Source: an uncultured euryarchaeote
GTDB lineage: Archaea > Thermoplasmatota > Poseidoniia > Poseidoniales > Poseidoniaceae
Assembly (NCBI GenBank): GCA_964014165.1
Contig: CAXGZM010000001.1
Location: forward strand, 1 to 59,694
DNA length: 59,694 bases
Direction of reading: 5' to 3'
Below, piece by piece: positions 1-26,749 of this stretch (its first letter is position 1; every line of letters starts with the position of its first letter). Under the pieces are notes generated by a model. The model had not been told where the DNA came from and did no database searches. It saw only the letters and a program-made list of their open reading frames with translations. A program made the position numbers and the translations under genes.

Positions 1-5
1 CGTTC

Positions 6-2333
6 TTGGCCTGTCTCGATTCAGACGATGATCAGCATCGGCAAACCTTGCTCGGTCTTGCAAAAAGCGAGCCTCAACGCATTGATCTCGAGGCCTTGAG
101 CCTCGCTCACGAAGCCGATTATCAAGGTGCACTGGCTTACCTCAACGAGCAGCTCAAATCCCATCCGGAAGAGATTCCAATGCTGATGAGAAAGGCGAAT
201 CTGCAACGTCGGTGCGGGATGAATGAGGAAGCGATTCTCACCTGCGAGCAGGTCCTGAAAATTCAACCGACACACCAAGGGGCAGCCATGCTGCGAACCG
301 ATGTTGGCACCAAAGTTTGGCCCGAGGAAAAAGCGCTGAAGGAATATGAGTTGATGGTCGAGCAGTTCCCTCACGTTGCAAAGTTTCACCACCAACTCCT
401 GAACTACGTATATTCTGCTGCCGCGGACATGAAGTGGGCTCAATCAGTGGTCAGGCGCGGGTTGAATCACCACCCAAGGAGCATTCGATTGCAAATGTAC
501 GATGCGTTGATCGCAGCACAACTGGGGGATCATGAAATCGCAACAGAGAAGATCGCTTCGCTTCGGCAAATGCACCCTGATCATTACGAGGTACTGATGG
601 CTTCGGCCCAAATTGAGAAAATAGCAGGCAGACCGAGACAACAACTTGGCTTCATCAACCGCTACCTTGCTCGTACAGGGTATGCAAAAATTCAATCCAG
701 TTCGAGGCACAGGATTTCACCTGAATTCTTGAAGTGTCCCCTGTCAAAGAGTCAGGCATCGCACGGTATGGTATCCGTGATCATGACGACATACAAACGA
801 GATCCTCTCCTTGACGTTGCAATTTCGAGCATTCTCAACCAGACCTATCCTGAGATTGAACTGATCGTTGTCGACGATGCATCGCCCGACGATAATTTCG
901 AACGCCTCCAAGAAAAAGCCGAGGCAGACCCTCGAATTCGTCCGTTTCGAATGCAGCAGAACGGTGGGACCTACCTCGCAAAAAATTACGGCCTCCAGCA
1001 AGCGAAGGGGAAGTTCATTTCGTTCATGGACAGCGATGATTTTGCACATCCACAAAAACTCGAACGGCAGGTCGCCCAGTTTGTGACAAACAAGCAACTC
1101 CAGGGCGTTATTCACCAGTGCATTCGAATCGACGAAGATTCCAACATTGAGTTTCGCGGGGTGGGCTCGTTCAGAATGTCATGCATCTCCTTGATGATCC
1201 GAGCCAGCGTTATTGAGAAAATGGGTTACTTTGATTCATTGCGCGTTGGTGCTGATACGGAATTCATCGAGCGGATTGAAGCCGTCTTTGGTCCCAAATC
1301 GTTCCTTGAATTGCCTGATTTGACGCTGTTCATGATGCGCCATTCGACCTCGCTCACCGGCGGTGGGCCGTTCCACATTTCCTGGCGATCCATCGCAGGT
1401 CATAGACTGAAACATCACGTGAATTTTCGGCAATGGCACGAATCCATTCGCCGAGGGCAGTCGGACGGTTATTTGCCCGCTCATCTCGTAGAGCGGCCGT
1501 TTGAGGTCAGCGATTTGCAAATGTCAACCCACCACCAATGGAACGAGGGCACTCCGTTGTTTTCTGACTTGATCAAGTCGAGAAAGGAGAACTGGTGGAC
1601 GAAGGGCAAGGACATGTGGCAGAAGTCGCTCAGTTCAAAATTGGGCGGAAGGGAGTACGTGAAACAACTCGGCTACAAAGTTCCCGTCCTGTATTGGCGG
1701 GGAGAGGACCCGAACGACATCCCCGCCCTCGATTCACTTCCCGAACGCTTCGTCCTCAAGCCCGCAGAGGGATGGAGTTCCAACCACGTGTACTGCGTCG
1801 TTAACGGACACGACCTTTTGACTCACAAGCCCGTCACAAAAGAAGCGATTCTGAGCGAACTTGAGAAGGATGAATTCCAATCCACAAAAAAACCAGAAAT
1901 CATGATCGAGGAGTTGCTTGAACCAGAGAGGGTCGATGTGGAGTCGAACATTCCGCGTGATTACAAGTTCTATTGTTTCGGCGGACAGGTCGTGATGGTC
2001 CATGTATGCCTCAGGGTATCAGAGGTTGATGCAACGAAGAATGTTCATCACTACCTCGATGCAAACTTCAAACCCATGCCCTTCCAGGTGTTCAAAGGCC
2101 GCCCGCTACCGAAGAAACTGCCACCAAAACCCGACTGTTGGAATGAAATGATGGAAGTGGTTCAGTCCATTGGTCGGGAACTCAACATCTTCATGCGAAT
2201 TGATTTCTTCCCAACCCGTCGTGGTGCGGTGTTTGGGGAATTCACCCCCACGCCTCATGGCGGAAATGGCTACCTCGAGGAGGCTGACCGATACCTCGGT
2301 ACCTTCTGGATTGGTGAGGAGGGGGTGGCGTGA
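6..2333 (+). CDS. TPR-repeat / family-2 glycosyltransferase / TupA-like ATP-grasp three-domain fusion protein (5' end may lie upstream of the window)
   Basis: Single 775-codon ORF with the frame open to base 1; the first in-window start is TTG at 6. aa 1-230 are TPR-like helical repeats. aa ~255-470 form a GT2 core (VSVIMTTYKRDPLL, IELIVVDDASPDD, FMDSDD). aa ~525-775 match my recollection of the TupA-like ATP-grasp signature (RDYKFYCFGGQVVMVHV ... MRIDFF). Stop TGA 2331-2333 overlaps the next ATG. Confidence 0.7.
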   Translation: MACLDSDDDQHRQTLLGLAKSEPQRIDLEALSLAHEADYQGALAYLNEQLKSHPEEIPMLMRKANLQRRCGMNEEAILTCEQVLKIQPTHQGAAMLRTDVGTKVWPEEKALKEYELMVEQFPHVAKFHHQLLNYVYSAAADMKWAQSVVRRGLNHHPRSIRLQMYDALIAAQLGDHEIATEKIASLRQMHPDHYEVLMASAQIEKIAGRPRQQLGFINRYLARTGYAKIQSSSRHRISPEFLKCPLSKSQASHGMVSVIMTTYKRDPLLDVAISSILNQTYPEIELIVVDDASPDDNFERLQEKAEADPRIRPFRMQQNGGTYLAKNYGLQQAKGKFISFMDSDDFAHPQKLERQVAQFVTNKQLQGVIHQCIRIDEDSNIEFRGVGSFRMSCISLMIRASVIEKMGYFDSLRVGADTEFIERIEAVFGPKSFLELPDLTLFMMRHSTSLTGGGPFHISWRSIAGHRLKHHVNFRQWHESIRRGQSDGYLPAHLVERPFEVSDLQMSTHHQWNEGTPLFSDLIKSRKENWWTKGKDMWQKSLSSKLGGREYVKQLGYKVPVLYWRGEDPNDIPALDSLPERFVLKPAEGWSSNHVYCVVNGHDLLTHKPVTKEAILSELEKDEFQSTKKPEIMIEELLEPERVDVESNIPRDYKFYCFGGQVVMVHVCLRVSEVDATKNVHHYLDANFKPMPFQVFKGRPLPKKLPPKPDCWNEMMEVVQSIGRELNIFMRIDFFPTRRGAVFGEFTPTPHGGNGYLEEADRYLGTFWIGEEGVA

Positions 2334-3706
2334 TGGACATTGACGACATTGACGCCAACACGTCCTTCCATGAAGAGGCCTCCCTCCCGAGTTCCGCTCT
2401 CCAACCGAGTACCATGGCGCTCCAACACGAAAGGTACCTCAGGGAAAACCGCCGATTGCGAAATTCTGCTTCCTTTCGATTAGGCCTCTTGCTGACCAGA
2501 GCAGTGTCTCGGCCGTGGCGTATGGTACTCTTTCCGTTTCAGGTACTCCATCTCGGTTATTCTTTGATTTTGGAGCGTTTAGGCCATCGTCCCAAGCCCT
2601 ACTCGCTCTCCAGTGAAAGCGACCGATCGGTTACCTACGTTCCTCCACAGAAAGACTGCGTCGTCCTGTTTCCAACCAACGGTGTTGGTTTTGGCCACTT
2701 CACTCGGATGTATGCTTTTGCGAAGCGAATACAAAGACAGCAACCGAACACAGAGATCGTTTTCTTCACCACCATGCCGACCCTCCACTTGTTGTACAGC
2801 GAAGGATTTCCAACCTACCATGTGGCCGGTAGGAAGATGCACAAGGATCTCTCGGCGGCAGCATGGAACGCACTGGTAGAGGAACAGCTGAACTTGGTGT
2901 TCAATCTTCACCGTCCGAAAATGTTCGTGTTTGACGGGGCCTATCCCTACCGAGGTATGTTGAATGCGCTCCAGGGCCGTTCGTACCTCAACAAGGTATG
3001 GATGAGGCGCGGAGCGTTCAAAACCGGGAGTAACATTCCTGTTGACAGCATCCAGCATTTTGATTTGATCGTCAGGCCGGAAGACAGCGTTGCTGCGACT
3101 TCGAATGAACTTGAGCACACCGTCCCGGTTGAACTCATTCCTCCCATCGTGCTTTTGGAAGCCGATGAGTTGTTGCCTCGAAATTCAGCAAGAGCCCGTC
3201 TCAGACTTCCGAAGGACGCCAAGGTTGTCTACGTACAGCTCGGAGCCGGGAAAATCAACGACATTCAATCGGAGGTTCGCCTCACCGTTGATGCTCTGCT
3301 TGCCAATGAGGATGTCGTGGTGGTGCTGGGTGAGAGCATGCTCGGTGGCCGCCTGGACTTGGATGTTGATCGTTTGGTTGTGATTCGAGATTATCCTAAT
3401 TCCATGTACTTCAATGCCTTCGATGCAACCGTTCAAGCCGGTGGTTACAACTCCTATCATGAAGTTCGTAAGTTCGGTATGCCAACCGTGTTCTACCCGA
3501 ACATGTCCACCGGAATGGACGACCAGCTCGCACGCTGTTTGGCCGCAGAGGACGAGGGGTGGGGGCTTGTCGTGCGCGAACGAACCGCACAACATATCGC
3601 AGCGGCAATCGACCGGCTTCTTCACATGGAGCGTCGACCGATCGTAGAGGAAGATGATGGCGCGACTTCATTGACCAAGCAGATGATTCAGAGGGGATGG
3701 CTTTGA
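2333..3706 (+). CDS. GT-B fold glycosyltransferase (GT1/GT28 MurG-like C-terminal domain)
   Basis: ATG 2333 overlaps the upstream stop (TGATG), with GAGGAGG about 10 nt upstream. Glycine loop FPTNGVGFGHFTRM. The C-terminal AGGYNSYHEVRKFGMPTVFYPN...DDQ resembles GT28-type nucleotide-sugar binding domains. The N-terminal segment SFRLGLLLT..PWRMVLFPF is shared with the paralog at 5372-6538. Confidence 0.55.
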   Translation: MDIDDIDANTSFHEEASLPSSALQPSTMALQHERYLRENRRLRNSASFRLGLLLTRAVSRPWRMVLFPFQVLHLGYSLILERLGHRPKPYSLSSESDRSVTYVPPQKDCVVLFPTNGVGFGHFTRMYAFAKRIQRQQPNTEIVFFTTMPTLHLLYSEGFPTYHVAGRKMHKDLSAAAWNALVEEQLNLVFNLHRPKMFVFDGAYPYRGMLNALQGRSYLNKVWMRRGAFKTGSNIPVDSIQHFDLIVRPEDSVAATSNELEHTVPVELIPPIVLLEADELLPRNSARARLRLPKDAKVVYVQLGAGKINDIQSEVRLTVDALLANEDVVVVLGESMLGGRLDLDVDRLVVIRDYPNSMYFNAFDATVQAGGYNSYHEVRKFGMPTVFYPNMSTGMDDQLARCLAAEDEGWGLVVRERTAQHIAAAIDRLLHMERRPIVEEDDGATSLTKQMIQRGWL

Positions 3707-4227
3707 GTTCGTATTGGATGCTTCCTCGCATCGCCTTTGATTGGATTGAAAGCACCATACCAAAAGGCGCCGTCGTGCTTGAATTTGGGAGCGGTGAAGG
3801 AAGCATCAGCCTCGCTCAGGACTACGACTTAATCTCGGTTGAGCACGACGAGGGTTGGGTCGGCCATGCAAAAAATTCCACGTATCACTTTGCCCCCATC
3901 GCTCACAACAGTGTTTCAGAGCAGCACGGCGACGTTGGTTGGTATGAACCGGCATTTTTTGATGCCCTCCCTTCGTTTGTGTCCCTCATTCTCATCGATG
4001 GGCCGCCGGGGAGAATTGGCCGAGCAGGAATGTTGGCACATCTCGAACGCCTTCCCGAGTGGCGGTACATGCTTGTTGATGACACAGATCGAAAAGCAGA
4101 GGCCAATCTCTCAAGAAAACTCCAAGATTACTTTGATTGTGAACGCCAACGTGTTGAAACCTCGGAAAAGAAATTTGACGGGTCAATACGAATGTTTGAT
4201 GTGCTCAGCAGGAGGATGGTACCATGA
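3697..4227 (+). CDS. small SAM-dependent methyltransferase-like protein (DUF579 / polysaccharide methyltransferase-like motif order)
   Basis: The ATG lies inside the last 10 nt of the upstream gene. Motifs VVLEFGSGEGS (G-loop), LILIDGPPGRIGRAG and MLVDDTDRKAE occur in the same order as I remember for the DUF579 family. Assignment is from motif memory only. Confidence 0.4.
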   Translation: MALSSYWMLPRIAFDWIESTIPKGAVVLEFGSGEGSISLAQDYDLISVEHDEGWVGHAKNSTYHFAPIAHNSVSEQHGDVGWYEPAFFDALPSFVSLILIDGPPGRIGRAGMLAHLERLPEWRYMLVDDTDRKAEANLSRKLQDYFDCERQRVETSEKKFDGSIRMFDVLSRRMVP

Positions 4228-5375
4228 CGAAGGGGGTCGAAGATATCTCGGCGCATTCCACAACTTCATCGCAGCCTTATCTGCATCGAAAATTCTGGAT
4301 GGAAGCTGGCAACACCTTGGTGTTCAGTTGGAACAACATCGAGGTATTTTTTGAAATGCCCGAGGACTGGGTGTACTCAGAAACGCACACTGATTTGTTC
4401 CAACTGGCGCATCATCTCCTCGTGGAACCTTGGGACAAATCCGTCATGGATCAATGGCAACCAACAAGACAGCCCGGATGGCGTCCCGGATTGGCATTTT
4501 CCGGTGGCGTTGATTCGGCAGCAGCGCTCTGCTTAATGCCGGACAGCACCGTGTTGTTGTACCATGAACGTTGTGCGCTGAGCGGAAAACTCAGTCATGC
4601 AAACGCCCACCGTTTTTTTGAACACATTGAATCAACCACCGGTCGCAGGGTTCACCGCATTCGTTCAAACCACGAGAAAATTCGACAGACGCAAGGTCAA
4701 TCAATCGGATTCTCAACGGATTATGCCTGTGCTGTGCACGCTGTACTTCTCGCTGATTATTTTTCTCTGGACAGCATTGCGACCGGCATGCCCTTGGAAA
4801 ATTCATACCTCTTCCACGGGCACCAATATCGCGATTTCGCCTCATCTCGATTTTGGAACCATTATTCCAAGATGTTCGCTGATGTGGGATTGCCGCTCTA
4901 CCAGCCCGTGGCAGGCTGTTCGGAGGTGGTGAATTTGGCCATCGTTCAGCATCACGGTTGGGACGGTTGGGCACAATCCTGTCTCCGTTCACCGACACCC
5001 GGGAAAGTGTGTGGCTCGTGTTGGAAATGCTTCCGGAAAAACACATTGCAGGGGGACGACTACACCATGAGCAGCGAAATTTCAACGTTTTTGAAAAAGA
5101 AACCGTTGAAGCAAGCCGTAAGCACCCTGTACTCCATCCAGCGAGGGAAACTGCTGGAACAACATCGGAATTTCAAAAAGGATTTTGAGCACTTGGCAAC
5201 TTTTCTGCAAGAGGATTGGTCCTACCTTGAACGGTACTTGCCGGATGCCCTTGGCTTAATTCCATCCAAGTACAAGACCTTCACCGAATCTCGGTTGAAT
5301 CAGTCGGTGGCTGTGATGCAAGTCGACGATGTGTCAAGATTGCAAATGACAAATCTCTATCCCGAGCTGACCTAG
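4224..5375 (+). CDS. PP-loop ATP pyrophosphatase superfamily protein (QueC-like / sugar-amidotransferase-like)
   Basis: ATGA overlap with the upstream stop and AGGAGG 10 nt upstream. PP-loop LAFSGGVDSAAALCLMP. The C-terminal Cys cluster SCLRS..GKVCGSCWKCFRK resembles the QueC Zn site. At 383 aa it is similar in size to WbpG/WbuX-type amidotransferases. Confidence 0.55.
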   Translation: MTKGVEDISAHSTTSSQPYLHRKFWMEAGNTLVFSWNNIEVFFEMPEDWVYSETHTDLFQLAHHLLVEPWDKSVMDQWQPTRQPGWRPGLAFSGGVDSAAALCLMPDSTVLLYHERCALSGKLSHANAHRFFEHIESTTGRRVHRIRSNHEKIRQTQGQSIGFSTDYACAVHAVLLADYFSLDSIATGMPLENSYLFHGHQYRDFASSRFWNHYSKMFADVGLPLYQPVAGCSEVVNLAIVQHHGWDGWAQSCLRSPTPGKVCGSCWKCFRKNTLQGDDYTMSSEISTFLKKKPLKQAVSTLYSIQRGKLLEQHRNFKKDFEHLATFLQEDWSYLERYLPDALGLIPSKYKTFTESRLNQSVAVMQVDDVSRLQMTNLYPELT

Positions 5376-6538
5376 TTGACGATCTGGTCAATCCACGGCT
5401 TGATTGCGATGCGATTTGTTAGAGGCACGCCTCCAGGAAGGTGTGAGTAGACGGTTGAAAGACACAATCGAATTTCAACAGGGTCATCAGCACTCGCAAA
5501 CATCACAAAGAAGCGTTCGGTTGCCCTTCGTATTTTGTGGAGCACATCGAGCCTGGTCCCCGGAGGAATCAAACAAACCACGGGGAGGTTTGCAGCAAGG
5601 GCTGTAGCGATGAGTTCGGAGGACGGTGGAAGAATGGCTGCTCCATAGGAAGCCATGGATTGTGGACAAAGGATGCCCGAAGCGTTGGTTGATTGTCGAA
5701 CGCGTGCGCTGGTGAATTCAACGAGTTCGAGAGGCGGGTCGAAGGATTTCAACAGCGCCTGGAGGTTGACTTGAGGCGACGATGCTCCGGTGTAGCGGGT
5801 ACCGTCCAAAACCACCGAGGGAGGATCCTTGCGAAGTTGTGTGTCTCCGGGTTCCAGCAAACGATAGGCTGACGGGCTTTCAAACGAAAATTCCAGCACT
5901 TTGTCAAACAAATGTGCACGTTCCGTGGCGCTTCGGTCTTCGATGCCGTCCACCCTCAGCCAATACCACTGTGAATCCTTCCTGGTCTTCATGTTGGCAA
6001 TCATGCCTGCGTAAGGGAAAGGGCCATCAAAAATGATGTATTTCGGGCGGTGAGTTGCCAAAACGAGCGTAAGGAGTTGATTCCACTCAGCGTTCAAGAC
6101 CGCTGCACCGATGGAGGCGTTGTGCTTTTTGCTCGAGACCGGGTAGGTGATGATGCCACGCTCTTGTTGTTCGTTTTGCACGTTTCGAGGAAGAATTTGA
6201 ATGAATTTACGTGAGGGTGAATTTCTCCACTCACCTGCCATTTTTTGACATCTGTGAAACGAACTATCTCCCTCTTCATCCGTGCAGATGAACAGCAAGC
6301 ATTGTTCATCCATGGGGGGGCGTGCCTCTGCGCTCGGTTGCGATGATAATCGATTTGAAAAGAACTGGATGTTCATTTGGATGAACAGAAAAGGAAACAC
6401 GATGATTTTCCAAGGTTTTCGAAAGAACACCTCTGTCAACAGCACCCCCAACTGGAATGAATACGTCGCTCTGATTCGAGTCAATTCAACGAGCAACTCC
6501 TGCTCTTTCTCGGTGGTAAACTCTTGGTGAGGAATCAA
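5372..6538 (-). CDS. GT-B glycosyltransferase paralog of 2333-3706, with a degenerate glycine loop
   Basis: The track ORF runs to 6637, but its first 33 codons overlap the ABC ATPase gene. TTG 6538-6536 overlaps that gene's TGA (ATTGA) and has AAGGAGG 7 nt upstream. The N-terminal YSFQLGVLLT..PWKIIVFPF motif and overall collinearity match 2333-3706. The G-loop position reads EEGDSSFHRC. Confidence 0.5.
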   Translation of the reverse strand: MIPHQEFTTEKEQELLVELTRIRATYSFQLGVLLTEVFFRKPWKIIVFPFLFIQMNIQFFSNRLSSQPSAEARPPMDEQCLLFICTDEEGDSSFHRCQKMAGEWRNSPSRKFIQILPRNVQNEQQERGIITYPVSSKKHNASIGAAVLNAEWNQLLTLVLATHRPKYIIFDGPFPYAGMIANMKTRKDSQWYWLRVDGIEDRSATERAHLFDKVLEFSFESPSAYRLLEPGDTQLRKDPPSVVLDGTRYTGASSPQVNLQALLKSFDPPLELVEFTSARVRQSTNASGILCPQSMASYGAAILPPSSELIATALAANLPVVCLIPPGTRLDVLHKIRRATERFFVMFASADDPVEIRLCLSTVYSHLPGGVPLTNRIAIKPWIDQIVN

Positions 6539-7263
6539 TTTGATGCCTCCTTCAGGGCGTAATAGGCCTTGATGGCGTCTTGAGGTTCGCCATCGTGGAC
6601 TACTTTTCCGTGATCGAGAAGAACGACCCGATCGCAAATATCTCTCATCAATCCGAAACTGTGAGAGACAATGACAACCGTGCTTGCGCCTTTGACCATG
6701 TCGAGAATTCTTTTCTTTGATTTTTCTCGAAAATTCGGGTCTCCAACACCCAGCACCTCATCGATCAACAGGATGTTTGGTTTAATCGCTGAAGCAACCG
6801 CCAATCCAAGACGTGCTTTCATGCCTGCAGAGTACGTTCGCAGTGGCTCATCAATGAAGGAGCCGAGCTCACTGAACTCAATGATTTCATCCAGTTTCCC
6901 CCTCATTTCGGCTTCATCGTGGCCGAGAATTGAGCCATAGAGCAGTGCGTTCTCTCGTCCTGTTTGATGCGCGGAGAATCCAGTTCCAAGTCCAGCAAGC
7001 AGCGAAATATCCCCGGCTGCGTGCACCGTACCTTCGTCGGGAGGGTAAATTCCTGAAATGACGCGAAGCAAGGTGGATTTCCCTGATCCGTTTGTGCCGA
7101 TGATACCGACCACGTCACCCTGGTTGATTTCCAAGTTGATGTCCGACAGAGCAGTGAACCGGCGCACTTTCTTCTTGAAGAAATCAGCAAGGATTCCAAA
7201 CATGTTCCGCTGCTTGGGAAAGTGCAACGTGATGCCTTCAAGGCGGATTGACGGTTCTGTCAT
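6535..7263 (-). CDS. polysaccharide/teichoic-acid-type ABC exporter ATP-binding protein (TagH/KpsT/Wzt-like, no C-terminal glycan-binding domain)
   Basis: Walker A GTNGSGKST, signature YSAGMKARL, Walker B ILLIDEV, H-loop VSHS. ATG 7263 overlaps the permease stop (ATGA). The longer track ORF (to 7431) adds only an Arg/Pro/Gly-rich overlap. Confidence 0.85.
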   Translation of the reverse strand: MTEPSIRLEGITLHFPKQRNMFGILADFFKKKVRRFTALSDINLEINQGDVVGIIGTNGSGKSTLLRVISGIYPPDEGTVHAAGDISLLAGLGTGFSAHQTGRENALLYGSILGHDEAEMRGKLDEIIEFSELGSFIDEPLRTYSAGMKARLGLAVASAIKPNILLIDEVLGVGDPNFREKSKKRILDMVKGASTVVIVSHSFGLMRDICDRVVLLDHGKVVHDGEPQDAIKAYYALKEASN

Positions 7264-8117
7264 AGGTACTTCACCGCCCCTCGCTCGTATTTTGAAAACA
7301 CCATTGTCCCAACCAAATAAACGAGAAGGGTGGCAACGACGCTCGAGAGGATGACTTCGGGCGGGAGGTCCACGGATTTGCCCTCCAGTCCGTGGCGCAC
7401 CATGGTGATGGGGAGCACCATCGGGTTCCACAACGCAGCCTCACCCCAAGCCCCTCGCTCAAGAGCCATCTCAGCAGTCCACATGACCGGCGAGAGAAAG
7501 AATCCCGCTCGGGTGATAAACCGAACGAGATGCTGGACGTCACGTTGTACGCAGTTCAGAGGGGCCATCAACATGCCAAAACCTAGGGCCATGAAGCCAG
7601 CCAACAAAATACCGACTGGAACCCAAAGAAGGTGAACGCTCAACGGTAGATCGTAAATGAAAAGGAGAGGAAAAACGATGAGACAACTCATCAACGTGAC
7701 CACAACATTCGCACCCACGCCCGATACAGGAAAAATTGAGCGAGGGAAATACACCAAATGCATGGTGCGGACGTTCCCCGTGAGGGAATTTGTCGCAGCG
7801 TTCAATGATTTTGAAAATGACCCCCAGACGATGACGCCCATCAACACCCACACGGCGTACATCTTGTCGGGATTTCCACTCAACATGATGAATAAAAACC
7901 AGTAAACAGAGGCCAGCAGTGCAGGTTCAATCACCGTCCAAGCATAACCAAGCGCAGCGTTCCTGTATCGGCCGCGAACTTCTCGCCGAATCAGGTTCCG
8001 TAGCAAAAAGCGATTTGTTCGAATTTCCGTTAAGGTATGGATGGGTGCGAAGAGCGGATTTGATTTCACTCCGATTTGGCGGAGAACAGGCGCGGCCGAA
8101 GCGTTCTCCTCCATCAT
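7260..8117 (-). CDS. ABC-2 type polysaccharide export permease (Wzm/TagG/KpsM-like)
   Basis: About 6 TM segments. The N-terminal RNLIRREVRGRYRNAALGYAWTVIEP signature is typical of ABC-2 glycan exporters. Translationally coupled to the ATPase. Confidence 0.8.
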   Translation of the reverse strand: MMEENASAAPVLRQIGVKSNPLFAPIHTLTEIRTNRFLLRNLIRREVRGRYRNAALGYAWTVIEPALLASVYWFLFIMLSGNPDKMYAVWVLMGVIVWGSFSKSLNAATNSLTGNVRTMHLVYFPRSIFPVSGVGANVVVTLMSCLIVFPLLFIYDLPLSVHLLWVPVGILLAGFMALGFGMLMAPLNCVQRDVQHLVRFITRAGFFLSPVMWTAEMALERGAWGEAALWNPMVLPITMVRHGLEGKSVDLPPEVILSSVVATLLVYLVGTMVFSKYERGAVKYL

Positions 8118-8135
8118 CGGCGCCTTGATTCATCC

Positions 8136-8143
8136 CTATATGA
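8136..8143 (-). promoter_or_regulatory. TATA-like element upstream of the ABC exporter operon
   Basis: CTATATGA on the plus strand, ~22 nt upstream of ATG 8117, in the 177-bp divergent region. Confidence 0.3.
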
Positions 8144-8294
8144 TTGAAGCGGACCAATCGTTCAATGATGCAGCATTCAGCGGGTGTTCGAATCAATGCA
8201 CCTGGAATTTATGGGTTGGGTTGAAGAGAAGAACGGATTTGGAAAGGCCATGGGATGGCATCAGCGCTTCGCCTCGCTGGCGTCAAATGCCGAC

Positions 8295-9605
8295 ATGACC
8301 GTCGGTATCATCGGCTTGGGCTACGTCGGCCTCCCGACTGCCATCGGTTTCCACGATGCTGGGTTTACGGTGTGGGGCGTGGACGTGTCTCAGCGCACCG
8401 TGGATGCGGTGAAAGCCGGGAAAAACCCAACAGGTGATCCGGACGTGGATGACATTGTCCCCCAACCGGGCACCGACCGCTGGCACATCACGACCTCAAC
8501 GGCCGAGGCGGTTCCAAATTGTGACATCGTCCTCGTCACGGTTCCGACGCCGGTCACGCACGACCTCAAGCCCGATCTTTCCTACGTTGAGGCAGCCGGA
8601 AGAGCGGTCTTCGAAGCGATTCCAAAAGGTTCCAACACCATCGTGGTGCTGGAGTCCACGGTGTATCCCGGGGTGACGGCTCATACGTGGTTGCCGCTGA
8701 TTGAAGGCTTGGGCATGACCATCGGCGTGGACGTTGAAATTGCTTATTGCCCGGAGCGCTTCAACCCCGGCGATGCTGCCCACGGCGTTCGTTCCGTGGC
8801 GCGAGTTATCGGTTGTTCCAATCCCGAGGTGGGTGAAGCGCTGGTCCAACTCTACAGTCAACTCACGAGCGAAGACGTCCGCTATGTGGGTAAGCTTGAG
8901 GTCGCTGAGGCGGCCAAGGTCATTGAGAACGTTCAGCGCGACATCAACATCGCCCTGGTCAACGAACTCGCTCGGATTTTCCCGGCCATGGACGTGGATG
9001 TTGAAGACGTGCTGTCGGCCGCAGCGACGAAGTGGAACTTCCATCGCTACACCCCTGGCGTCGGCGTGGGCGGCCATTGTATTCCCGTTGACCCGTATTA
9101 CATGATTCAGCGAGCAGCCGATGTCGGCGTGCCTGCCGGGCTCATTGCCGCCGCTCGTGCCGTGAACCGGTCCATGCCCAACCACGTGGCTCAAGTGCTC
9201 GTTGACATTCTGTGGAAGGCTGGTCTTTCGGCTGAATCCACCAAGGTGCTGTTCCTTGGTTGGTCCTACAAGGCCGAGGTCGGCGACCCTCGTGAAACGC
9301 CAGCAGAACCGCTGGCGGAGGCACTCCAGCAACGCGGCATCCACGTCAGTGTCTACGATCCGCACATCGATCCCGAGACCTTCCCTGATTCGGTGGACGT
9401 GATTCAAGACCTCTCTCTGGCCGAAGGCCATGACCTCGCCGTGTTGGTGACAGCCCACACGGCGTGTGTTGACCTTGACTGGTCGACCCTCGCCCGGCAA
9501 ATGGAGACACCACGCATTTACGACGGTCGCCGTGTGCTCGATTTGGAATCGCTGAAGGAAGCTGGCTGGCAGTGCTATGCCGTCGGACGCCCAATCCCTT
9601 CGTGA
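8295..9605 (+). CDS. nucleotide-sugar 6-dehydrogenase (WecC/WbpA/Cap5O-like UDP-N-acetylhexosamine dehydrogenase clade)
   Basis: Rossmann N-terminus MTVGIIGLGYVGLP, catalytic GGHCIPVDPYY, and a C-terminal UDP-binding domain. The track ORF starts at 8184. ATG 8295 gives the canonical N-terminus; 8250 is an alternative. Confidence 0.85.
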   Translation: MTVGIIGLGYVGLPTAIGFHDAGFTVWGVDVSQRTVDAVKAGKNPTGDPDVDDIVPQPGTDRWHITTSTAEAVPNCDIVLVTVPTPVTHDLKPDLSYVEAAGRAVFEAIPKGSNTIVVLESTVYPGVTAHTWLPLIEGLGMTIGVDVEIAYCPERFNPGDAAHGVRSVARVIGCSNPEVGEALVQLYSQLTSEDVRYVGKLEVAEAAKVIENVQRDINIALVNELARIFPAMDVDVEDVLSAAATKWNFHRYTPGVGVGGHCIPVDPYYMIQRAADVGVPAGLIAAARAVNRSMPNHVAQVLVDILWKAGLSAESTKVLFLGWSYKAEVGDPRETPAEPLAEALQQRGIHVSVYDPHIDPETFPDSVDVIQDLSLAEGHDLAVLVTAHTACVDLDWSTLARQMETPRIYDGRRVLDLESLKEAGWQCYAVGRPIPS

Positions 9606-9626
9606 ACCGGTTCACACGCTGTTTTT
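9602..9626 (+). terminator. perfect 14-nt palindrome overlapping the stop codon, followed by T5
   Basis: GTGAACCGGTTCAC at 9602-9615, then TTTTT at 9622-9626, just after the dehydrogenase gene. Confidence 0.3.
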
Positions 9627-9690
9627 CCGATGTTGTCGGTGATGCGCTGAGGAACGTTAAACTGCAACGGGCTCTCATTGCCATTGGTAG

Positions 9691-10806
9691 ATGGAACAAA
9701 AGGAGCCGGCCGCGCTGTCCATCGGGCAGTTTGCATTGAGCATGGGCGTTTTCCTCGTCGTGTTTTTGTTTCTTTCCGGTTCGGTTGTTCCGACCGTGGT
9801 GAACGACGGCCTGATTGAAGGGAACTTCATCCGAAGCGGCCGTTATGCTGTCACGCACCCAGCCATGGAATCCATCGCAGCCGAGGAAGGCGAGGCTGTT
9901 GTTGTGATCGGCTCCTCCATTCTTCAATATGCTACGGACGGCCTGTGCATCGGTCAACACTTGGATGATGACAACACCAAGGTCTACAATCTGGCCATAG
10001 GAGGTGCGAACCCCTACACGGAAATGATTCAGATTCCATCGTTAATCGACACGAAACCAAAAGCCGTCATCGTTGACCTTGGCCCGAATTCGTTGTGGAA
10101 TTTTTACGAATCCGACAGCCTTGATGAATACATTCAGTTTCGATTTACCATTCTAAGCCTGACGCTTGATTTGGGGAGAGAACCGGCTTGGAGCGACTTG
10201 ATTCGTGAACGGGACCAATCCTTCATTGCATCCAGTTTGGAAGAGCGAATTCACCTAACAGCATCGTACTCTCAGGTTGCTCTTGATAACGCGCTGGCAG
10301 CCGAATTTCATGATGAATTGGGCGTAGCATACATCGATCGGAACATGCCAGGCGTTGACGATGAAGGTTGGCTGGACTATCTGCAAAACCCCGGGTTTTT
10401 ACCTCCCTTGTTTGAGTTGAAAAATCAAACAGAAGTGGACGCATGGTTTGAGGAAAACATGCCGAAACGCGCGAAGTATGGCGTCTACAACCCGTTGCCC
10501 AACGGGACGCTCAATCATGCAGCGCTGGACTACACCGTTCGCTCCTTGACCGAAGCAGGTATCGAGGTGTTCATGCTCGCCATTCCACACCATCCACAGG
10601 TGTATGACTACCTTCAACCCAGCCAGATTGACGGGCATAACGTCACGCTGAACCGGTTTGAGCAGGAATACGGGGCCGTCCCTGTGAATTGGTTTTGGGA
10701 ATCATGGGACCAGGGGATGTTTCGAGACCGTAACCACCTAGGCGATCAAGGTCGAATCCATGCATGTGAGCGAATCGCTGACATGTTGAACGAACAATTG
10801 GGGTGA
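9691..10806 (+). CDS. membrane-anchored SGNH/DltD/AlgJ-like protein (probable partner of the MBOAT)
   Basis: N-terminal TM anchor, then VVVIGSSILQY (nucleophile-like Ser), NLAIGGANPY, and a C-terminal FRDRNHLGDQG (DxxH). Lies immediately upstream of the MBOAT gene. Confidence 0.45.
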   Translation: MEQKEPAALSIGQFALSMGVFLVVFLFLSGSVVPTVVNDGLIEGNFIRSGRYAVTHPAMESIAAEEGEAVVVIGSSILQYATDGLCIGQHLDDDNTKVYNLAIGGANPYTEMIQIPSLIDTKPKAVIVDLGPNSLWNFYESDSLDEYIQFRFTILSLTLDLGREPAWSDLIRERDQSFIASSLEERIHLTASYSQVALDNALAAEFHDELGVAYIDRNMPGVDDEGWLDYLQNPGFLPPLFELKNQTEVDAWFEENMPKRAKYGVYNPLPNGTLNHAALDYTVRSLTEAGIEVFMLAIPHHPQVYDYLQPSQIDGHNVTLNRFEQEYGAVPVNWFWESWDQGMFRDRNHLGDQGRIHACERIADMLNEQLG

Positions 10807-10810
10807 GCAC

Positions 10811-12265
10811 TTGGATTTCGTCACCCCTTCGTACTACCTCTATTTTCTCCCGCTGGTGGTTGTTCTCACGTTTGGCCTCGCCTCAAGGCAACGTCGCCGC
10901 CAAATTCTGATCCTTCTCGTGATGAGTTATGTGTTCTTCTGGCTCGCCTCGGGATGGCACCTCATTCTTCTCCTCGTGTCGACATGCATCGATTGGACCG
11001 CAGGGCGAAAAATGCACGAAACGGACGATACAAGCAGGCGAAAGCGATGGCTTCGAATCAGTTTAGTCACCAACCTTTCCCTGCTTGGCGTGTTCAAGTA
11101 CCTTGATTTCATCATCGAAAGTTGGAACCTTGTTTCCCTTCGCCTCACCGATGGTCTTGAGGTTGGTGCGTTGGGATTGGCCTTGCCGGTGGGGATCTCC
11201 TTCTACACCTTCCAGACCATGTCCTACACCATTGACGTTTATCGTCAGAAACAGAAGCCGTACGATTCATTCCTCGACTTTGCCTGCTACGCTGCGTTTT
11301 TCCCGCAACTTGTAGCCGGCCCCATCGTCCGAGCGGATCATTTCCGGGAGCAAATCAAGGAACCGTTGGCCCCGTCTGCATACCGATTTCGTCTTGGATT
11401 GACGCTCATCATTTACGGGATAAGCAAAAAACTCGTCATCGCCGATAACGTCGCCGTCCATGCCAACGAGGTTTTCGTTGAAGGCGAACATTTGGCCAAC
11501 ATCGGGTTGGTGTGGTGGGCCACCTTGTGTTTTGGTATCCAAATTTACTGTGATTTTTCCGCCTACACGGACATCGCCATCGGGTCTGCACATCTGATTG
11601 GCGTTGAATTACCAGAGAATTTCAAAACGCCCTACGCTGCCACTTCCCCCCAAGACTTCTGGCGCCGGTGGCACATTTCACTCTCGACGTGGTTGCGAGA
11701 TTACCTCTACATCCCGCTCGGCGGGTCGCGAAACGGTCGAAACCGCATGTTGTTTGCGTTGATGATGACGATGCTTCTTGGCGGCCTTTGGCACGGAGCT
11801 TCGTGGAACTTTGTGCTGTGGGGTTTTGTCCACGGCCTGCTGCTCATCGTCCATCGCTTTGGGAAAGAAATTGGTCCCGTCAAGCAATTTTTCACAGCTT
11901 CCGGCCGGGGGGGCGTCGTTCTCTCGTGGCTGATCACTCAATTTTTCGTGTTCTTTACTTGGCTGATTTTCCGAGTGGAAGACACGGCCGTCCTCGTCCC
12001 ATCGATGAAGACCTTCCTCGGTTGGGGTGGCCACTTTGACTGGATGGAGATGTACGAGTTTCTGCCCGACATCAAATTCCTCACGTTCGCCTTGGCAGGA
12101 TGTTTCATCCTTCTTCACGGTGTGAGTGGCTGGATGGGGGGAGGAAAAGCGTGGTTGGCCCGTCAACATTCGGTTGTTTGGGGTTCAGTTTGTGGATTCA
12201 TGCTGTGTTTGGCCTTTTACCTTCGTCCGGCGGAAACGATTGACTTCATTTATTTCCGATTCTGA
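10811..12265 (+). CDS. MBOAT family O-acyltransferase (AlgI/DltB/PatA-like)
   Basis: Polytopic membrane protein. The hallmark FWRRWHISLSTWLRDYLYIPLGGSR contains the catalytic His. TTG start lies 5 nt after the upstream stop. Confidence 0.85.
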   Translation: MDFVTPSYYLYFLPLVVVLTFGLASRQRRRQILILLVMSYVFFWLASGWHLILLLVSTCIDWTAGRKMHETDDTSRRKRWLRISLVTNLSLLGVFKYLDFIIESWNLVSLRLTDGLEVGALGLALPVGISFYTFQTMSYTIDVYRQKQKPYDSFLDFACYAAFFPQLVAGPIVRADHFREQIKEPLAPSAYRFRLGLTLIIYGISKKLVIADNVAVHANEVFVEGEHLANIGLVWWATLCFGIQIYCDFSAYTDIAIGSAHLIGVELPENFKTPYAATSPQDFWRRWHISLSTWLRDYLYIPLGGSRNGRNRMLFALMMTMLLGGLWHGASWNFVLWGFVHGLLLIVHRFGKEIGPVKQFFTASGRGGVVLSWLITQFFVFFTWLIFRVEDTAVLVPSMKTFLGWGGHFDWMEMYEFLPDIKFLTFALAGCFILLHGVSGWMGGGKAWLARQHSVVWGSVCGFMLCLAFYLRPAETIDFIYFRF

Positions 12266-17793: not shown

Positions 17794-17838
17794 GGGGTAG
17801 AGCAGAGAGACGACGAGGATCTGGATGGACAGCCCTCC

Positions 17839-18510: not shown

Positions 18511-18627
18511 GTCATCCCTCAACCTCACCCAGCCATCGCCATTTGAAGAGACTTGCCATCTTGAGCACCATTCATTTTGGCGCAAATGCCTATAGTGCAT
18601 CCCTGTTAGGCCGATTTAGGTGAAGGC

Positions 18628-20531: not shown

Positions 20532-20596
20532 GTGTTCAAGACTTTGTTCATTTGGTGTGGCGGCACGTTTTGTTTGAGCATTTTTGCAAAAAGCAC

Positions 20597-20604
20597 TTTA
20601 TATT
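20597..20604 (+). promoter_or_regulatory. archaeal TATA-box candidate for the WD40/TSP3 gene (near-leaderless)
   Basis: TTTATATT followed by an A8 run, centred ~23 nt upstream of ATG 20623 in a 91-bp divergent intergenic region. Confidence 0.45.
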
Positions 20605-20622
20605 GAAAAAAAAGCCAACAGC

Positions 20623-26662: not shown

Positions 26663-26749
26663 TGTTGGTGCCGTACCGGCTGAAGCGAGGCGTGGATTTC
26701 ATAGCGTGCTGCTCAGTGGCCACGGATGTCCAGTGGGCGGTGATTGAGC

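Follow-up and report, generated by a model that had tools for sequence, protein, structure and literature searches.

Gene content and conservation of a DUF6395-containing cluster point to an ABC-transporter-dependent surface glycan pathway in Poseidoniales

Marine group II archaea (Poseidoniales) are abundant and uncultured, and positions 1–12265 of the 59.7-kb stretch of DNA analysed here (the window) raise the question of whether such organisms carry an undescribed surface-glycan system, as the original prediction proposed for a unit of ten genes (g1–g10). Re-reading of the sequence recovered all ten open reading frames on the strands and at the positions given there, together with their overlapping junctions. 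The archaeal host proposed with them is supported by PolD DP2, an archaeal primase and DUF373 in the window, and a g4 fragment with 98% identity is labelled ‘Candidatus Thermoplasmatota archaeon’ by NCBI.

The ten-gene boundary, however, is an artefact of the window, since g1 (1–2333, plus strand) is truncated at its edge and glycan genes continue upstream. The frame of g1 is open through nucleotides 1–3, and the window holds the 3′ 775 codons of a protein that is 1102 aa at full length in contig L001 (99.5% identical to the window across 15.4 kb), where four further genes, for a membrane GT2, a GT1/GT4, a GT4 and a GalE/TviC-like epimerase, lie directly upstream. At least 14 genes thus make up the cluster, of which positions 1–12265 cover the right-hand two-thirds. 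On the plus strand, g1 and g2 (2333–3706) meet at TGATG (2331–2335), the ATG of g3 (3697–4227) at 3697 creates a 10-nt overlap with the g2 stop (3704–3706), a start favoured because residues upstream of the alternative Met are kept in homologues, and g3 and g4 (4224–5375) share ATGA at 4224–4227. Convergent with g4, and overlapping it by 4 nt (5372–5375), is g5 (5372–6538), the last of three minus-strand genes: g7 (7260–8117) and g6 (6535–7263) share ATGA at 7260–7263, where the start codon of g6 (ATG at 7263) overlaps the stop of g7, and g6 joins g5 at TTGA (6535–6538), with GGAGG preceding the TTG start of g5. The plus strand resumes with g8 (8295–9605, its start lying anywhere from 8184 to 8295), g9 (9691–10806), g10 (10811–12265) and the right-hand neighbour n1 (12352–13599). 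A second flippase gene, this one Wzx-like, follows 3 kb downstream (15321–16775).

This arrangement recurs among relatives. We recovered 75 loci, almost all from Poseidoniales MAGs and including the original MG-II genome CM001443.1, and the gene order, for which the original prediction had suggested a conservation check, is repeated in dozens of independent Poseidoniales genomes, which places it beyond chance. It commonly runs GT2-GT1-GT4-epimerase-[DUF6395]-g2-g3-[GT2-GT2-DUF6395]-g5, followed by ABC-ABC-dehydrogenase-(SGNH-MBOAT)-cysteate synthase. Counted over 20 independent loci, each 15 kb or longer, DUF6395 (the family of g4) and g2 are present in all 20, the ABC exporter in 18, the dehydrogenase in 17, MBOAT plus SGNH in four and ATP-grasp in two. 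The core consists of DUF6395, g2, the ABC exporter and the dehydrogenase; ATP-grasp and MBOAT/SGNH, put forward earlier as hallmarks, are rare accessory cassettes.

The cluster is also uneven in composition and divergence. GC content is 0.50–0.53 in g1–g7 and g9–g10 and 0.60–0.61 in g8, n1 and u1–u3, with a genome value of 0.59. Identity to the proteins of L014, named as the closest relative, is high for g6 (84%), g7 (83%), g8 (89%) and n1 (88%) and low for the TPR part of g1 (31%), g5 (30%), g3 (51%), g2 (61%) and g4 (63%). By these comparisons the export and precursor genes evolve as fast as the core genome, and g1–g5 and the accessory cassettes form a divergent, low-GC part resembling a serotype-determining region. 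The GC offset might suggest recent transfer of a cluster already characterised in bacteria (O-antigen, capsule or teichuronopeptide), a case that the original prediction had itself raised; the closest named models are bacterial (TuaG, Wzt/TagH, DltB), and an ‘ATP-grasp fold amidoligase [Microvirga]’ shows 41% identity. Yet no characterised bacterial cluster of high identity or synteny was seen, the close relatives of g4 are all Poseidoniales with the same order and chromosomal neighbours, matches to bacterial equivalog models all fall far under their cut-offs, and no match to a characterised family was obtained for g2, g3, g4, g5 and g9. As the 83–89% identity of g6, g7 and g8 between MGII species further indicates vertical inheritance, recent transfer is effectively refuted, and only the ATP-grasp domain and the MBOAT/SGNH cassettes look, plausibly, like older imports.

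What the core would do is suggested by its export and precursor genes. The 242-aa g6 matches ABC_tran (E = 1.8e-23) and, among NCBIfam models, scores 196.6 bits with Wzt/RfbE and 168.8 bits with TagH, under the equivalog cut-off in each case; it is a nucleotide-binding domain alone, without the C-terminal carbohydrate-binding (cap-reading) domain. Its partner g7 (285 aa) matches ABC2_membrane (E = 1.2e-15; 58 bits, cut-off 26.9) and is Wzm/RfbD-like at 55 bits, and these profiles bear out the anticipated pairing of an ABC-2 permease with a Wzt/TagH-like ATPase. All three UDPG_MGDP_dh domains and the GGHCIPVDPYY motif are found in g8, which scores 382 bits with TIGR03026 (cut-off 190) and reaches no equivalog cut-off in NCBIfam. 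The solved structures closest to it are 4r16, a UDP-ManNAcA dehydrogenase (209 bits), and Cap5O (198 bits), against only ~120–130 bits for UDP-glucose dehydrogenase structures. Profiles and structural relatives together confirm its predicted identity as an N-acetylhexosamine-type NDP-sugar 6-dehydrogenase (UDP-N-acetylhexosamine clade) of the WecC/WbpA/Cap5O type.

We interpret the cluster as probably the Poseidoniales route to an acidic cell-surface glycan, made in a bacterial style that depends on an ABC transporter; it can be likened to bacterial capsule and O-antigen clusters, from which it differs by its DUF6395 core. In this route g8 would oxidise a UDP-N-acetylhexosamine to a hexosaminuronic acid, which the upstream GalE/TviC-like enzyme may epimerise. 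The chain would be built on a putative polyprenyl/dolichyl carrier at the inner membrane face by cytoplasmic glycosyltransferases (those encoded upstream, GT2, GT1 and GT4, together with g1 through its GT2 domain, the MurG-like g2 and perhaps g5), and g7/g6 would export the lipid-linked glycan. Against this route, a search of the 59.7-kb window found no initiating phosphoglycosyltransferase, AglB/STT3 or ligase. The predicted topology fits the sequence of cytoplasmic assembly and extracytoplasmic acylation foreseen in the original prediction: g2, g3, g4, g6 and g8 have no membrane segments, g7 (with multiple hydrophobic segments) and g10 are polytopic, g9 has one N-terminal transmembrane segment and g5 a single weak hydrophobic segment near the C-terminus (306–324, score 1.65).

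The ABC-2 pair could instead serve as the flippase for a short dolichol-linked oligosaccharide used in N-glycosylation of S-layer or surface proteins, with AglB encoded elsewhere as the transferase, in place of a long capsule or teichuronic polymer. The predicted decorations match those on archaeal N-glycans (PMC11407970), transferases number just about five or six, and there is neither a chain-length regulator nor a cap-reading Wzt domain in the 242-aa g6. We see this as possible and somewhat unlikely, for the GT2-GT2-DUF6395 fusions (~1100–1200 aa) resemble the polymerising transferases of ABC-dependent polysaccharides, and no AglB was found in the window. MBOAT/SGNH pairs are known to O-acylate polymers (alginate, peptidoglycan and teichoic acids) and are not known to do so with N-glycans.

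The signature gene of the acidic-glycan route is DUF6395 (g4, 383 aa; Pfam E = 2.5e-25), an uncharacterised ATP-using family. Its invariant residues, S93/G95/S98 (SGGxDS) and C253/C263/C266/C269 (a QueC-like Cys4), belong to motifs retained throughout the family, and the AlphaFold2 model (pLDDT 91.3, with a helical domain at the C-terminus) is matched in Foldseek by Cap9 (QueC-like; best, E = 6.8e-4), TilS, NcsA, TtuA, GMP synthase and LarE, with weak E-values and low global TM scores against these PP-loop enzymes. Motifs and model thus confirm the earlier assignment of g4, at the level of predicted fold, as a PP-loop ATP pyrophosphatase that carries a QueC-like Cys4 site. For g3 (176 aa; model pLDDT 90.1), Foldseek returned COMT (E = 1e-6, TM 0.63–0.66) and other SAM methyltransferases as best matches, with 188 at E ≤ 1e-3, and the family conserves ExGSGxG, SVEHD, DGPPG and DDxxR motifs. 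The foreseen methyltransferase is confirmed on the modelled class I fold as of COMT/cation-dependent O-methyltransferase type; its specific placement in DUF579/GXM, which one of 27 family members matches (E = 0.042), is not supported.

We envision that the growing chain is modified by ATP-dependent enzymes physically coupled to transferases. Relatives carry GT2-GT2-DUF6395, DUF6395-GT2 and GT4-DUF6395 fusions, as well as g3-g4 fusions of ~630 aa. On an unrelated contig (GC 55%) a DUF6395-GT2 fusion adjoins an ABC-2 permease/ATPase pair, on another DUF6395 adjoins GT2s and an Acyl_transf_3-SGNH acyltransferase, and the family also occurs in phage-like contigs. In our scheme g4 would adenylate a hexosaminuronic oxygen, most likely that of the C-6 carboxylate to give an amide, and g3 would methylate the same or an adjacent residue. 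QueC, which g4 most resembles in fold and Cys4 pattern, begins with a carboxylate, and a dehydrogenase accompanies 17 of the 20 MGII loci. Alternatively, within the same system, g4 may adenylate the carbonyl oxygen of the N-acetyl group and introduce ammonia, forming an acetamidine in the mode of WbuX/WbpG-type PP-loop amidotransferases, with g3 N- or O-methylating nearby. We consider this unlikely, as g4 has no NCBIfam match at E ≤ 0.01, the WbuX-type model included, and no HisH/HisF-like ammonia-delivering partner was found in the cluster; what speaks for it is the phage-like contig L086, where genes for a dehydratase/epimerase, a DegT aminotransferase and a GNAT acetyltransferase precede DUF6395, an acetamido-sugar pathway whose lack of a sugar dehydrogenase points to an acetamidine product rather than an amidated carboxylate. 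The fold and sequence matches also include argininosuccinate synthase and GMP synthase, which adenylate carbonyl or ureido oxygens, and acetamidino-mannuronic acid occurs in the M. maripaludis N-glycan (PMC11407970).

The other gene found in every locus, g2 (457 aa, cytoplasmic), gave no above-threshold match in Pfam. Among 26 family members, Glyco_tran_28_C matches 11 (best E = 4e-4) and EryCIII-like_C 12, a sterol 3-beta-glucosyltransferase is matched in the PDB (E = 0.006), the FPTNGVGFGH loop is invariant and g2 bears an amphipathic motif at its N-terminus; the g2 and g9 family profiles found no matches among PDB sequences. We class g2 as a putative MurG/GT1-like GT-B glycosyltransferase. 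Its proposed paralogy with g5 (388 aa) is upheld for the N-terminal half (BLASTP, 29% identity across 197 aa, E = 1e-23), and the GT-B label given to both is weakened by the sub-threshold g2 matches and the missing Gly-rich loop of g5. The g5 family is fast-evolving (14–30% identity, just seven invariant residues), and g5 may be non-catalytic; relatives keep it in the same place, flanked by g4 and the ABC ATPase.

The accessory parts would add further decoration in this variant. Pfam places TPR_14, Glycos_transf_2 (E = 2.4e-28; ~nt 774–1139) and, after a linker, ATPgrasp_TupA (E = 1.1e-26; 94 bits, cut-off 25; ~nt 1635–2303) in g1, as the original prediction had it. The GT2 domain is closest to heparosan synthase B and to residues 375–505 of chondroitin synthase K4CP, and homologues of the ATP-grasp domain carry the name ‘ATP-grasp fold amidoligase family protein’. 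The same architecture is seen in Campylobacter Cj1438, a GT2 with a TupA-like ATP-grasp whose C-domain amidates the C-6 carboxylate of GlcA with ATP, a precedent for transferase-coupled amidation (PMC11800379); by analogy, g1 would join an amine or amino acid to the uronic carboxylate.

Profile evidence sustains g10 (484 aa) as an MBOAT (E = 9.5e-34; 117.6 bits, cut-off 27) with the WHISLSTWLRDYLY motif, an AlgI/PatA/DltB-like membrane O-acyltransferase that scores 164 bits with the DltB model, under its cut-off of 375. The DltD-like assignment of g9 (371 aa) is weaker, with DltD at 21.2 bits and Lipase_GDSL_2 at 24.1 bits both under cut-off; family invariants G74-S75-S76, N100 and D346-x-x-H349 leave it a sub-threshold candidate (DltD/AlgJ/PatB-like) for the extracytoplasmic SGNH-like partner of g10, which stands alongside it in all four loci that have g9. 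Membrane-anchored g9 and g10 would O-acylate the glycan outside the cell, probably by O-acetylation. Wherever the two genes occur, they lie within the cluster or at its margin, adjoining dehydrogenase or ABC genes, over MGII lineages and orientations (L006, L015, L019, L025, L027, L029 and L070), and a distant DUF6395 gene also adjoins an acyltransferase-SGNH gene. This makes it quite unlikely that g9–g10, and perhaps g1, are independent modules for another surface polymer at a recombination hot spot beside the cluster, although g9–g10 form a low-GC insert (0.52 in g10) between native-GC g8 (0.60) and n1, occur in only four of 20 loci, are absent from L014 and lie close to the downstream Wzx-like gene. 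The cysteate synthase n1 (TIGR03844, 418.9 bits over a cut-off of 324.9) has native GC (0.61), shares 88% identity with its orthologue in L014 and lies next to the cluster in nine or more loci; its membership in the glycan system is doubtful.

Hexosaminuronic C-6 amides, amino-acid amides, acetamidino and O-methyl groups are already known from archaeal N-glycans (PMC11407970), so the novelty claimed at the outset stands for the enzymes and the export route and falls away for the kinds of decoration. Taken together, the gene content observed across Poseidoniales defines an archaeal variant, so far undescribed, of the ABC-transporter-dependent glycan pathway, in which the chemistry would follow the steps proposed above.

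The ten ORFs assigned to the cluster (window 1-12265) and their overlap-chained junctions were borne out by direct reading of the sequence. On the plus strand, g1 (a TPR-GT2-ATP-grasp fusion) runs into the GT-B-like g2 at TGATG (2331-2335), g2 overlaps the methyltransferase-like g3 by 10 nt (3697-3706), and g3 meets g4, the PP-loop/DUF6395 gene, at ATGA (4224-4227). On the minus strand, the ABC ATPase g6 and the ABC-2 permease g7 are joined at ATGA (7260-7263), and g5, a paralogue of g2, is joined to g6 at TTGA (6535-6538), its start being the TTG at 6538 with GGAGG ahead of it. g4 and g5 are convergent with a 4-nt overlap. The proposed extent of ten genes, on the other hand, did not hold. g1 has no start codon within the window, its frame staying open up to the first bases, and a search for identical g4 proteins turned up five metagenome contigs from this population, which are 99.5-99.8% identical to the window. 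Contig L001 reaches 5.8 kb further left; here the full g1 encodes 1102 aa, with a ~570-aa TPR arm, and four further glycan genes lie upstream of it, namely a GalE/TviC-like epimerase (319 aa), a GT4 (361 aa), a GT1/GT4 (327 aa) and a membrane GT2 (408 aa; PgaC-like, 69 bits). The ten-gene boundary is therefore an artefact of the window edge. No initiating transferase, AglB or ligase was found in the 59.7-kb window, and tRNA and Rfam scans gave nothing relevant in the locus. The window also encodes the PolD large subunit (39010-43128), the archaeal primase large subunit, DUF373 and an HVO_0163-type HTH protein, and the host is therefore archaeal; COX1, COX3 and SCO1 are encoded as well, and the organism is therefore aerobic.

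We scanned one genome per GTDB species with family-specific peptide patterns, a design biased toward close relatives, and obtained 75 loci with g4 relatives, nearly all in MAGs of Poseidoniales (marine group II, MGII), CM001443.1 included; the few bacterial-labelled contigs among them are short MAG contigs, possibly mis-binned. When the window proteins were searched against six-frame ORFs of all 75 loci, gene order proved to be conserved in related archaeal genomes, as GT2-GT1-GT4-epimerase-[DUF6395 ~500 aa]-g2-g3-[GT2-GT2-DUF6395]-g5-ABC ATPase-permease-dehydrogenase-(SGNH-MBOAT)-cysteate synthase. Among 20 independent loci with a length of 15 kb or more, g2 is present in every one (20/20), followed by the ABC genes (18/20), the dehydrogenase (17/20), the GT4 (15/20), the epimerase and the GT2 (14/20 each) and g3 (12/20); two DUF6395 copies occur in 11, the MBOAT and SGNH genes in four, and the ATP-grasp in two. 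Amino-acid identity to the closest species, represented by locus L014, is high for the sugar 6-dehydrogenase g8 (89%), the right-hand neighbour n1 (88%), g6 (84%) and g7 (83%), lower for g4 (63%), g2 (61%) and g3 (51%), and lowest for the g1 TPR arm (31%) and g5 (30%). GC content is 0.50-0.53 in g1-g7 and 0.51-0.52 in the SGNH-like g9 and the MBOAT g10, 0.60 in g8, and 0.60-0.61 in n1 and the upstream genes u1-u3. Nucleotide alignment to the closest species survives in the n1-BolA-glutaredoxin flank alone, with 82% identity.

In L014, the g1 orthologue is complete and g9-g10 are absent; the L014 orthologue of g4 (7796-11095) is fused C-terminally to two GT2 domains in a GT2-GT2-DUF6395 protein of ~1100 aa, whereas g4 of the window (4224-5375) is free-standing, with 383 aa. 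The window variant has therefore lost, or never had, the two transferase domains, and has gained g9-g10. The overall pattern, a divergent biosynthetic region with exchangeable cassettes set among conserved genes for export and precursors, is also that of bacterial O-antigen and capsule loci. A recent transfer of a known bacterial cluster was rejected, as the relatives lie nearly exclusively in Poseidoniales/MGII MAGs, the gene order recurs among them, and g6, g7 and g8 are 83-89% identical to their L014 counterparts.

The ABC exporter of the original prediction was confirmed: g7 matches ABC2_membrane (58.1 bits against a cut-off of 26.9), g6 matches ABC_tran (84.1 against 25), and the ATGA overlap joins the two. 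No equivalog match to characterised exporters was reached by either protein (g6: galactan Wzt 196.6 against 400, TagH 168.8 against 320; g7: galactan Wzm 55.4 against 380, KpsM 19 against 300). The arrangement resembles the Wzm/Wzt and TagGH pathways for O-antigen, teichoic acid and galactan in that an ABC-2 permease and ATPase stand in an operon with cytoplasmic glycosyltransferases, and, as in Wzm/Wzt-type pathways, variable low-GC biosynthetic genes lie beside conserved export genes. It differs from these bacterial pathways in equivalog scores that are all far under cut-off, in a Wzt without the C-terminal cap-binding domain, in having no recognisable WbdD-like terminator, and in that no ligase is known. 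The archaeal carrier would be dolichyl phosphate, unlike in the bacterial pathways.

Membership of g8 in the UDP-glucose/GDP-mannose dehydrogenase family also stood, with significant N-terminal, central and C-terminal domains and 382 bits against 189.8 for TIGR03026. Its closest relatives are the UDP-ManNAcA dehydrogenase 4r16 (209 bits) and Cap5O (198 bits), UDP-glucose dehydrogenases scoring ~120-130 bits. The proposed WecC/WbpA type thus holds as far as the N-acetylhexosamine clade is concerned, but not at the level of a particular enzyme, since the equivalog cut-offs were missed (259 against 750, 253 for TviB against 592, and 218 against 459). The Salmonella Vi locus (TviB/TviC/TviD/TviE/VexBC) can be likened to the MGII cluster, as it pairs a glycosyltransferase with O-acetylation and exports an acidic HexNAcA polymer through an ABC system. 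The models for TviB (UDP-GlcNAc 6-dehydrogenase-type) and TviC (4-epimerase) reach 253 and 139 bits in the MGII cluster, far under the equivalog cut-offs. The Vi transferases and the type of acetyltransferase differ, and PP-loop, methyltransferase and ATP-grasp components are absent from Vi.

The PP-loop assignment of g4 is upheld by the motif FSGGVDSAAA at residues 92-101, in which S93, G95 and S98 are invariant in 25 sequences, and DUF6395 (PF19932) matches residues 215-374 with 89.9 bits against a cut-off of 25. In the family alignment, C253, C263, C266 and C269 are invariant and form a QueC-like Cys4 pattern. Foldseek searches with the AlphaFold2 model (pLDDT 91.3, pTM 0.90) placed only PP-loop enzymes among the top matches, all at weak E-values: Cap9 (QueC-like, E = 6.8e-4, the best), TilS, NcsA, TtuA, GMP synthase, LarE and NAD synthetase. 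A g4 profile aligned its PP-loop to that of argininosuccinate synthase at a sub-threshold E = 0.08, and single-sequence searches of g3 and g4 against PDB sequences gave nothing useful. The more specific identities suggested earlier were not supported by family models, with no match of g4 to QueC (PF06508) at E <= 0.01 (QueC Pfam matches in fused g4 homologues are weak, the best at 0.007), no match to any NCBIfam family at E <= 0.01, that of the WbuX/WbpG/AglX-type N-acetyl-sugar amidotransferases included, and no HisH/HisF-like partner among the cluster genes in the window and upstream. QueC and the CBASS protein Cap9 (PDB 9nto), the best structural match, are the closest relatives of g4 in fold and motif only: the SGGxDS PP-loop and a C-x9-C-x2-C-x2-C pattern after the nucleotide-binding domain are common to them, whereas g4 is extended by a beta domain at the N-terminus and by a helical domain of ~170 aa at the C-terminus (the DUF6395 model), and its genomic context is glycan synthesis rather than queuosine synthesis or defence.

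An exhaustive profile search of 1.84 billion clusters returned 764 DUF6395 representatives at E <= 1e-3. The Cys4 motif is found in 121 of 123 long members and the S[GA]GxDS PP-loop motif in 100 of these 123. The domain occurs in GT2-GT2-DUF6395, DUF6395-GT2(-GT2), GT4-DUF6395 and methyltransferase(g3-like)-SPOR-like-DUF6395 architectures. The last of these comprises ~630-aa g3-g4 fusions (P0023, P0030, P0024, P0038 and others) whose middle segment (alignment A2 columns ~330-420) has weak SPOR matches in five members, the best at E = 0.011; SPOR is a peptidoglycan-binding domain and would be unexpected in archaea without murein. Outside MGII, a DUF6395-GT2-GT2 gene adjoins a GT2 and an ABC-2 permease/ATPase pair on a contig of 55% GC, and a contig of 44% GC has the order GT2, DUF6395, Acyl_transf_3-SGNH, GT2. 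The phage-like contig L086 (GC 32%) carries a dehydratase, the aminotransferase DegT, a GNAT, DUF6395 (10001-11050) and glycosyltransferases, and two ~223-kb IMG/VR contigs (L081 and L082, GC 34%) carry GT2-DUF6395-epimerase, with DUF6395 at 7875-9068. DUF6395 is therefore robustly tied to glycan tailoring by its fusions and by its contexts in and outside MGII, and its position beside GT2, epimerase, DegT and GNAT genes on viral and phage-like contigs means that viruses may carry a glycan-tailoring enzyme. A literature search found no papers on DUF6395. We envision that g4 would catalyse an ATP-dependent amidation or amidination, for which a carboxylate is a plausible, if tentative, target and an acetamido group a rather unlikely one.

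For g3, the AlphaFold model (pLDDT 90.1) supports the predicted methyltransferase fold, with COMT as the top Foldseek match (E = 1e-6, probability 1.0) and COMT and other class I SAM methyltransferases leading 188 matches at E <= 1e-3. The family alignment reveals conserved E29-x-G-S-G-x-G, E49-H-D, D101-G-P-P and D128-D129 motifs, in keeping with a Rossmann-type fold that has a Gly-rich motif I and acidic residues after strands 2, 4 and 5. By comparison with COMT, these motifs would occupy the positions at which cation-dependent O-methyltransferases bind SAM and metal. Methyltransf_24 is matched by two of 27 family members (5.7e-5). The suggested kinship to DUF579/IRX15-GXM was not supported, the window protein having no match and a single member out of 27 matching IRX15_IRX15L_GXM at E = 0.042. 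g3 would act in methylation of the glycan. It was also considered that g3 and g4 together form a chain terminator like the kinase-methyltransferase WbdD; this was rejected as the main reading, given a Wzt without a cap-binding domain and the fusion of DUF6395 to tandem GT2 domains, which suggests modification of each repeat.

Both enzymatic domains proposed for g1 were recovered, ATPgrasp_TupA (PF14305) at 94.3 bits against 25 (model positions 20-238 of 241) and Glycos_transf_2 (PF00535) at 99.6 bits against 23.3 (residues 257-378). Homologues of g1 carry PF14305 and are named 'ATP-grasp fold amidoligase family protein' by NCBI. Nearest to the GT2 domain are heparosan synthase B and, in the chondroitin synthase K4CP, residues 375-505, regions which we take to be the glucuronyl-transferring domains of those enzymes. 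Among characterised proteins, Cj1438 is the nearest analogue of g1. Within the TupA-like family, ATP-dependent amide formation on a uronic-acid carboxylate is known only for Cj1438C (PMC11800379), and by analogy the g1 ATP-grasp would ligate an amine. Among the enzymes Cj1438/Cj1434 of the Campylobacter jejuni HS:2 capsule, which is exported by KpsMT, a GT2, a linker and a TupA-like ATP-grasp are joined on a single polypeptide, as in g1; the HS:2 ATP-grasp amidates the C-6 carboxylate of the uronic acid on the growing chain, a likeness that may extend to g1; and the two clusters have in common a UDP-sugar 6-dehydrogenase and ABC-transporter export (PMC11800379). g1 differs from Cj1438 in its extra ~570-aa TPR arm. 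Compared with HS:2, the MGII host is archaeal, the sugar is probably HexNAcA rather than GlcA, PLP enzymes and a HAD phosphatase for serinol-P/ethanolamine-P are absent from the cluster, and the ATP-grasp is an accessory (2/20 loci), the constant partner being an unrelated PP-loop enzyme.

g2 remains below threshold for Glyco_tran_28_C (13.3 bits against 22); within its family, 11 of 26 members match this model (best 4e-4) and 12 of 26 match EryCIII-like_C, all sub-threshold. Against the PDB, g2 matched a sterol glucosyltransferase at E = 0.006, and profiles of the g2 and g9 families found nothing among PDB sequences. The loop FPTNGVGFGH is invariant in the g2 family and is, in our estimation, reminiscent of the MurG Gly-rich loop. 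g5 is a very divergent paralogue of the N-terminal half of g2 (29% identity, E = 1e-23) that has lost this loop. Also of note, the N-termini of g2 (residues ~30-65, window 2420-2530) and g5 (residues ~10-45, 6440-6510) have the common motif R-x-R-N-[ST]-x-S-[FY]-R-L-G-x-x-L-T ... P-W, and a similar motif, NSWSYRIGRAVTLPLR, lies in the C-terminal extension of the g3-like protein P0132; the motif may represent a helix through which cluster proteins dock onto the membrane or a partner.

In the O-acylation cassette, g10 is an MBOAT (117.6 bits against 27) with the conserved His motif RRWHISLSTWLRDYLY. The DltD-like SGNH assignment of g9 was sustained in its conserved residues but not in its family scores, which fall short for DltD (21.2 against 22.7 bits) and Lipase_GDSL_2 (24.1 against 32.9): the Ser of block I (G74-S75-S76), the Asn of block III (N100) and the Asp-x-x-His of block V (D346/H349) are invariant in eight homologues. 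g9 has one predicted N-terminal transmembrane segment. The cassette resembles AlgI/AlgJ/AlgX, PatA/PatB and DltB/DltD in pairing an MBOAT bearing the His motif with an adjoining gene for a single-pass, membrane-anchored, extracytoplasmic SGNH-type partner, the MGII partner differing from that of DltB/DltD-type systems in being under threshold for the DltD and GDSL models. D-alanylation was weighed and rejected: no AMP-binding or PP-binding domain (DltA/DltC) is present in any cluster gene, and g10 scores 164 bits against 375 for the DltB model. Unlike in Dlt systems, these carrier genes are missing, and acetyl is therefore more likely than D-alanyl as the acyl group that g10 and g9 would transfer in an extracytoplasmic O-acylation. 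We know of no description of MBOAT and SGNH polymer O-acylation in archaea.

To the right, n1 (12352-13599, plus strand) encodes a genuine cysteate synthase, scoring 418.9 bits against 324.9 for TIGR03844, and does so in an archaeon that is aerobic and not a methanogen. The gene stands directly beside the cluster both in the window and in nine or more further loci of Poseidoniales, and its product could supply cysteate or taurine as the amine. Its membership of the system is kept only as a low-probability idea: it adjoins the cluster in no more than roughly half of the loci whose flanking sequence is long enough, and its native GC and high conservation (88% identity to L014) make it look like a conserved flank. 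Further along, a Wzx-like protein of 484 aa with 10-13 TM segments (15321-16775, plus strand) matches Polysacc_synt weakly (E = 4.8e-6, under cut-off) and is followed by an overlapping 622-aa ORF (16678-18546, plus strand) with no family match; several MGII loci have conserved the flippase-like gene on the downstream side of the cluster (50-75% identity), and it may belong to a second glycan route. Four large genes also lie nearby, encoding a 935-aa thrombospondin type-3 repeat protein (29576-32383, minus strand), a 1155-aa WD40 protein (20584-24051, plus), a STAND/AAA_16 NTPase (18960-20531, minus) and an 850-aa protein with a BsuPI-like domain and HTH domains of HVO_0163/ArsR type (24110-26662, plus). 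The leucyl-tRNA synthetase (26744-29575, plus) matches the editing-domain model PF13603 at 202 bits; we assume this model to be typical of bacterial-type enzymes, and the gene may be another bacterial-like one in the MGII genome.

Gene content, order, fusions, topology and conservation are directly shown, and from them we infer the steps of the mechanism: HexNAcA precursors would be synthesised, the glycan would be assembled in the cytoplasm on a lipid carrier, and ABC-2 export would follow. That this is a surface glycan cluster with ABC export is very probable; a HexNAcA-containing product is somewhat likely, and the chances are about even that it is a long polymer and not an N-glycan. To our knowledge, the enzymes for C-6 amidation of uronic acids in archaeal N-glycans are largely unassigned, and DUF6395 is a candidate; nor do we know of any link between the Methanococcus/Methanoculleus N-glycans and MBOAT. 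In these two genera, N-glycans contain N-acetylhexosaminuronic acids with C-6 amides, threonine amides, acetamidino and methyl groups (PMC11407970), so the decorations predicted for the MGII glycan are already known on archaeal N-glycans. The likeness drawn is one of sugars and decorations and does not rest on homology of the pathway enzymes to g3 or g4. The Methanococcus/Methanoculleus glycans are short N-linked oligosaccharides, and the review contains neither 'ABC transporter' nor 'flippase', and hence draws no connection from these N-glycans to an ABC-2 exporter (PMC11407970). A search for AglU/AglV gave no matches, and literature searches on MGII/Poseidoniales glycan islands, envelopes and glycosyltransferases found generic statements only and no description of the cluster. 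The cluster is an archaeal, DUF6395-centred variant of the ABC-transporter-dependent glycan pathway and not a categorically new system.

A bolder, joint reading is improbable on present evidence. DUF6395 would be a new class of glycan-tailoring PP-loop ligases that are carried by polymerising glycosyltransferases and turn carboxylates of uronic acids into amides on the nascent, ABC-exported archaeal surface polysaccharide, with the methyltransferase partner acting alongside; the amine might be unusual, for example cysteate from the conserved synthase next door, and 'glycotypes' would be set by the divergent g1-g5 region together with the accessory cassettes and be selected by MGII viruses, some with the same enzyme. 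If cysteate were indeed the amine, MGII archaea would have a sulfonated coat.

A glycan cluster as such is unsurprising, and its chemistry is all inferred, yet its organismal relevance is high. By its sequence, it appears to show that an archaeal lineage uses an ABC-2 export route of bacterial type, at times together with acylation by MBOAT/SGNH and amidoligation of the TupA type. A concrete, testable function is offered for DUF6395, a family of ~760 sequence clusters with repeated glycosyltransferase fusions that is also found on phage-like contigs, and a testable one for the small orphan methyltransferase g3. MGII are among the most abundant archaea of the surface ocean and, as far as we know, have never been cultured. 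Their coat is what viruses and grazers see, and no better handle on the cell covering of these archaea is available than the cluster, which occupies a fixed chromosomal site throughout the order.
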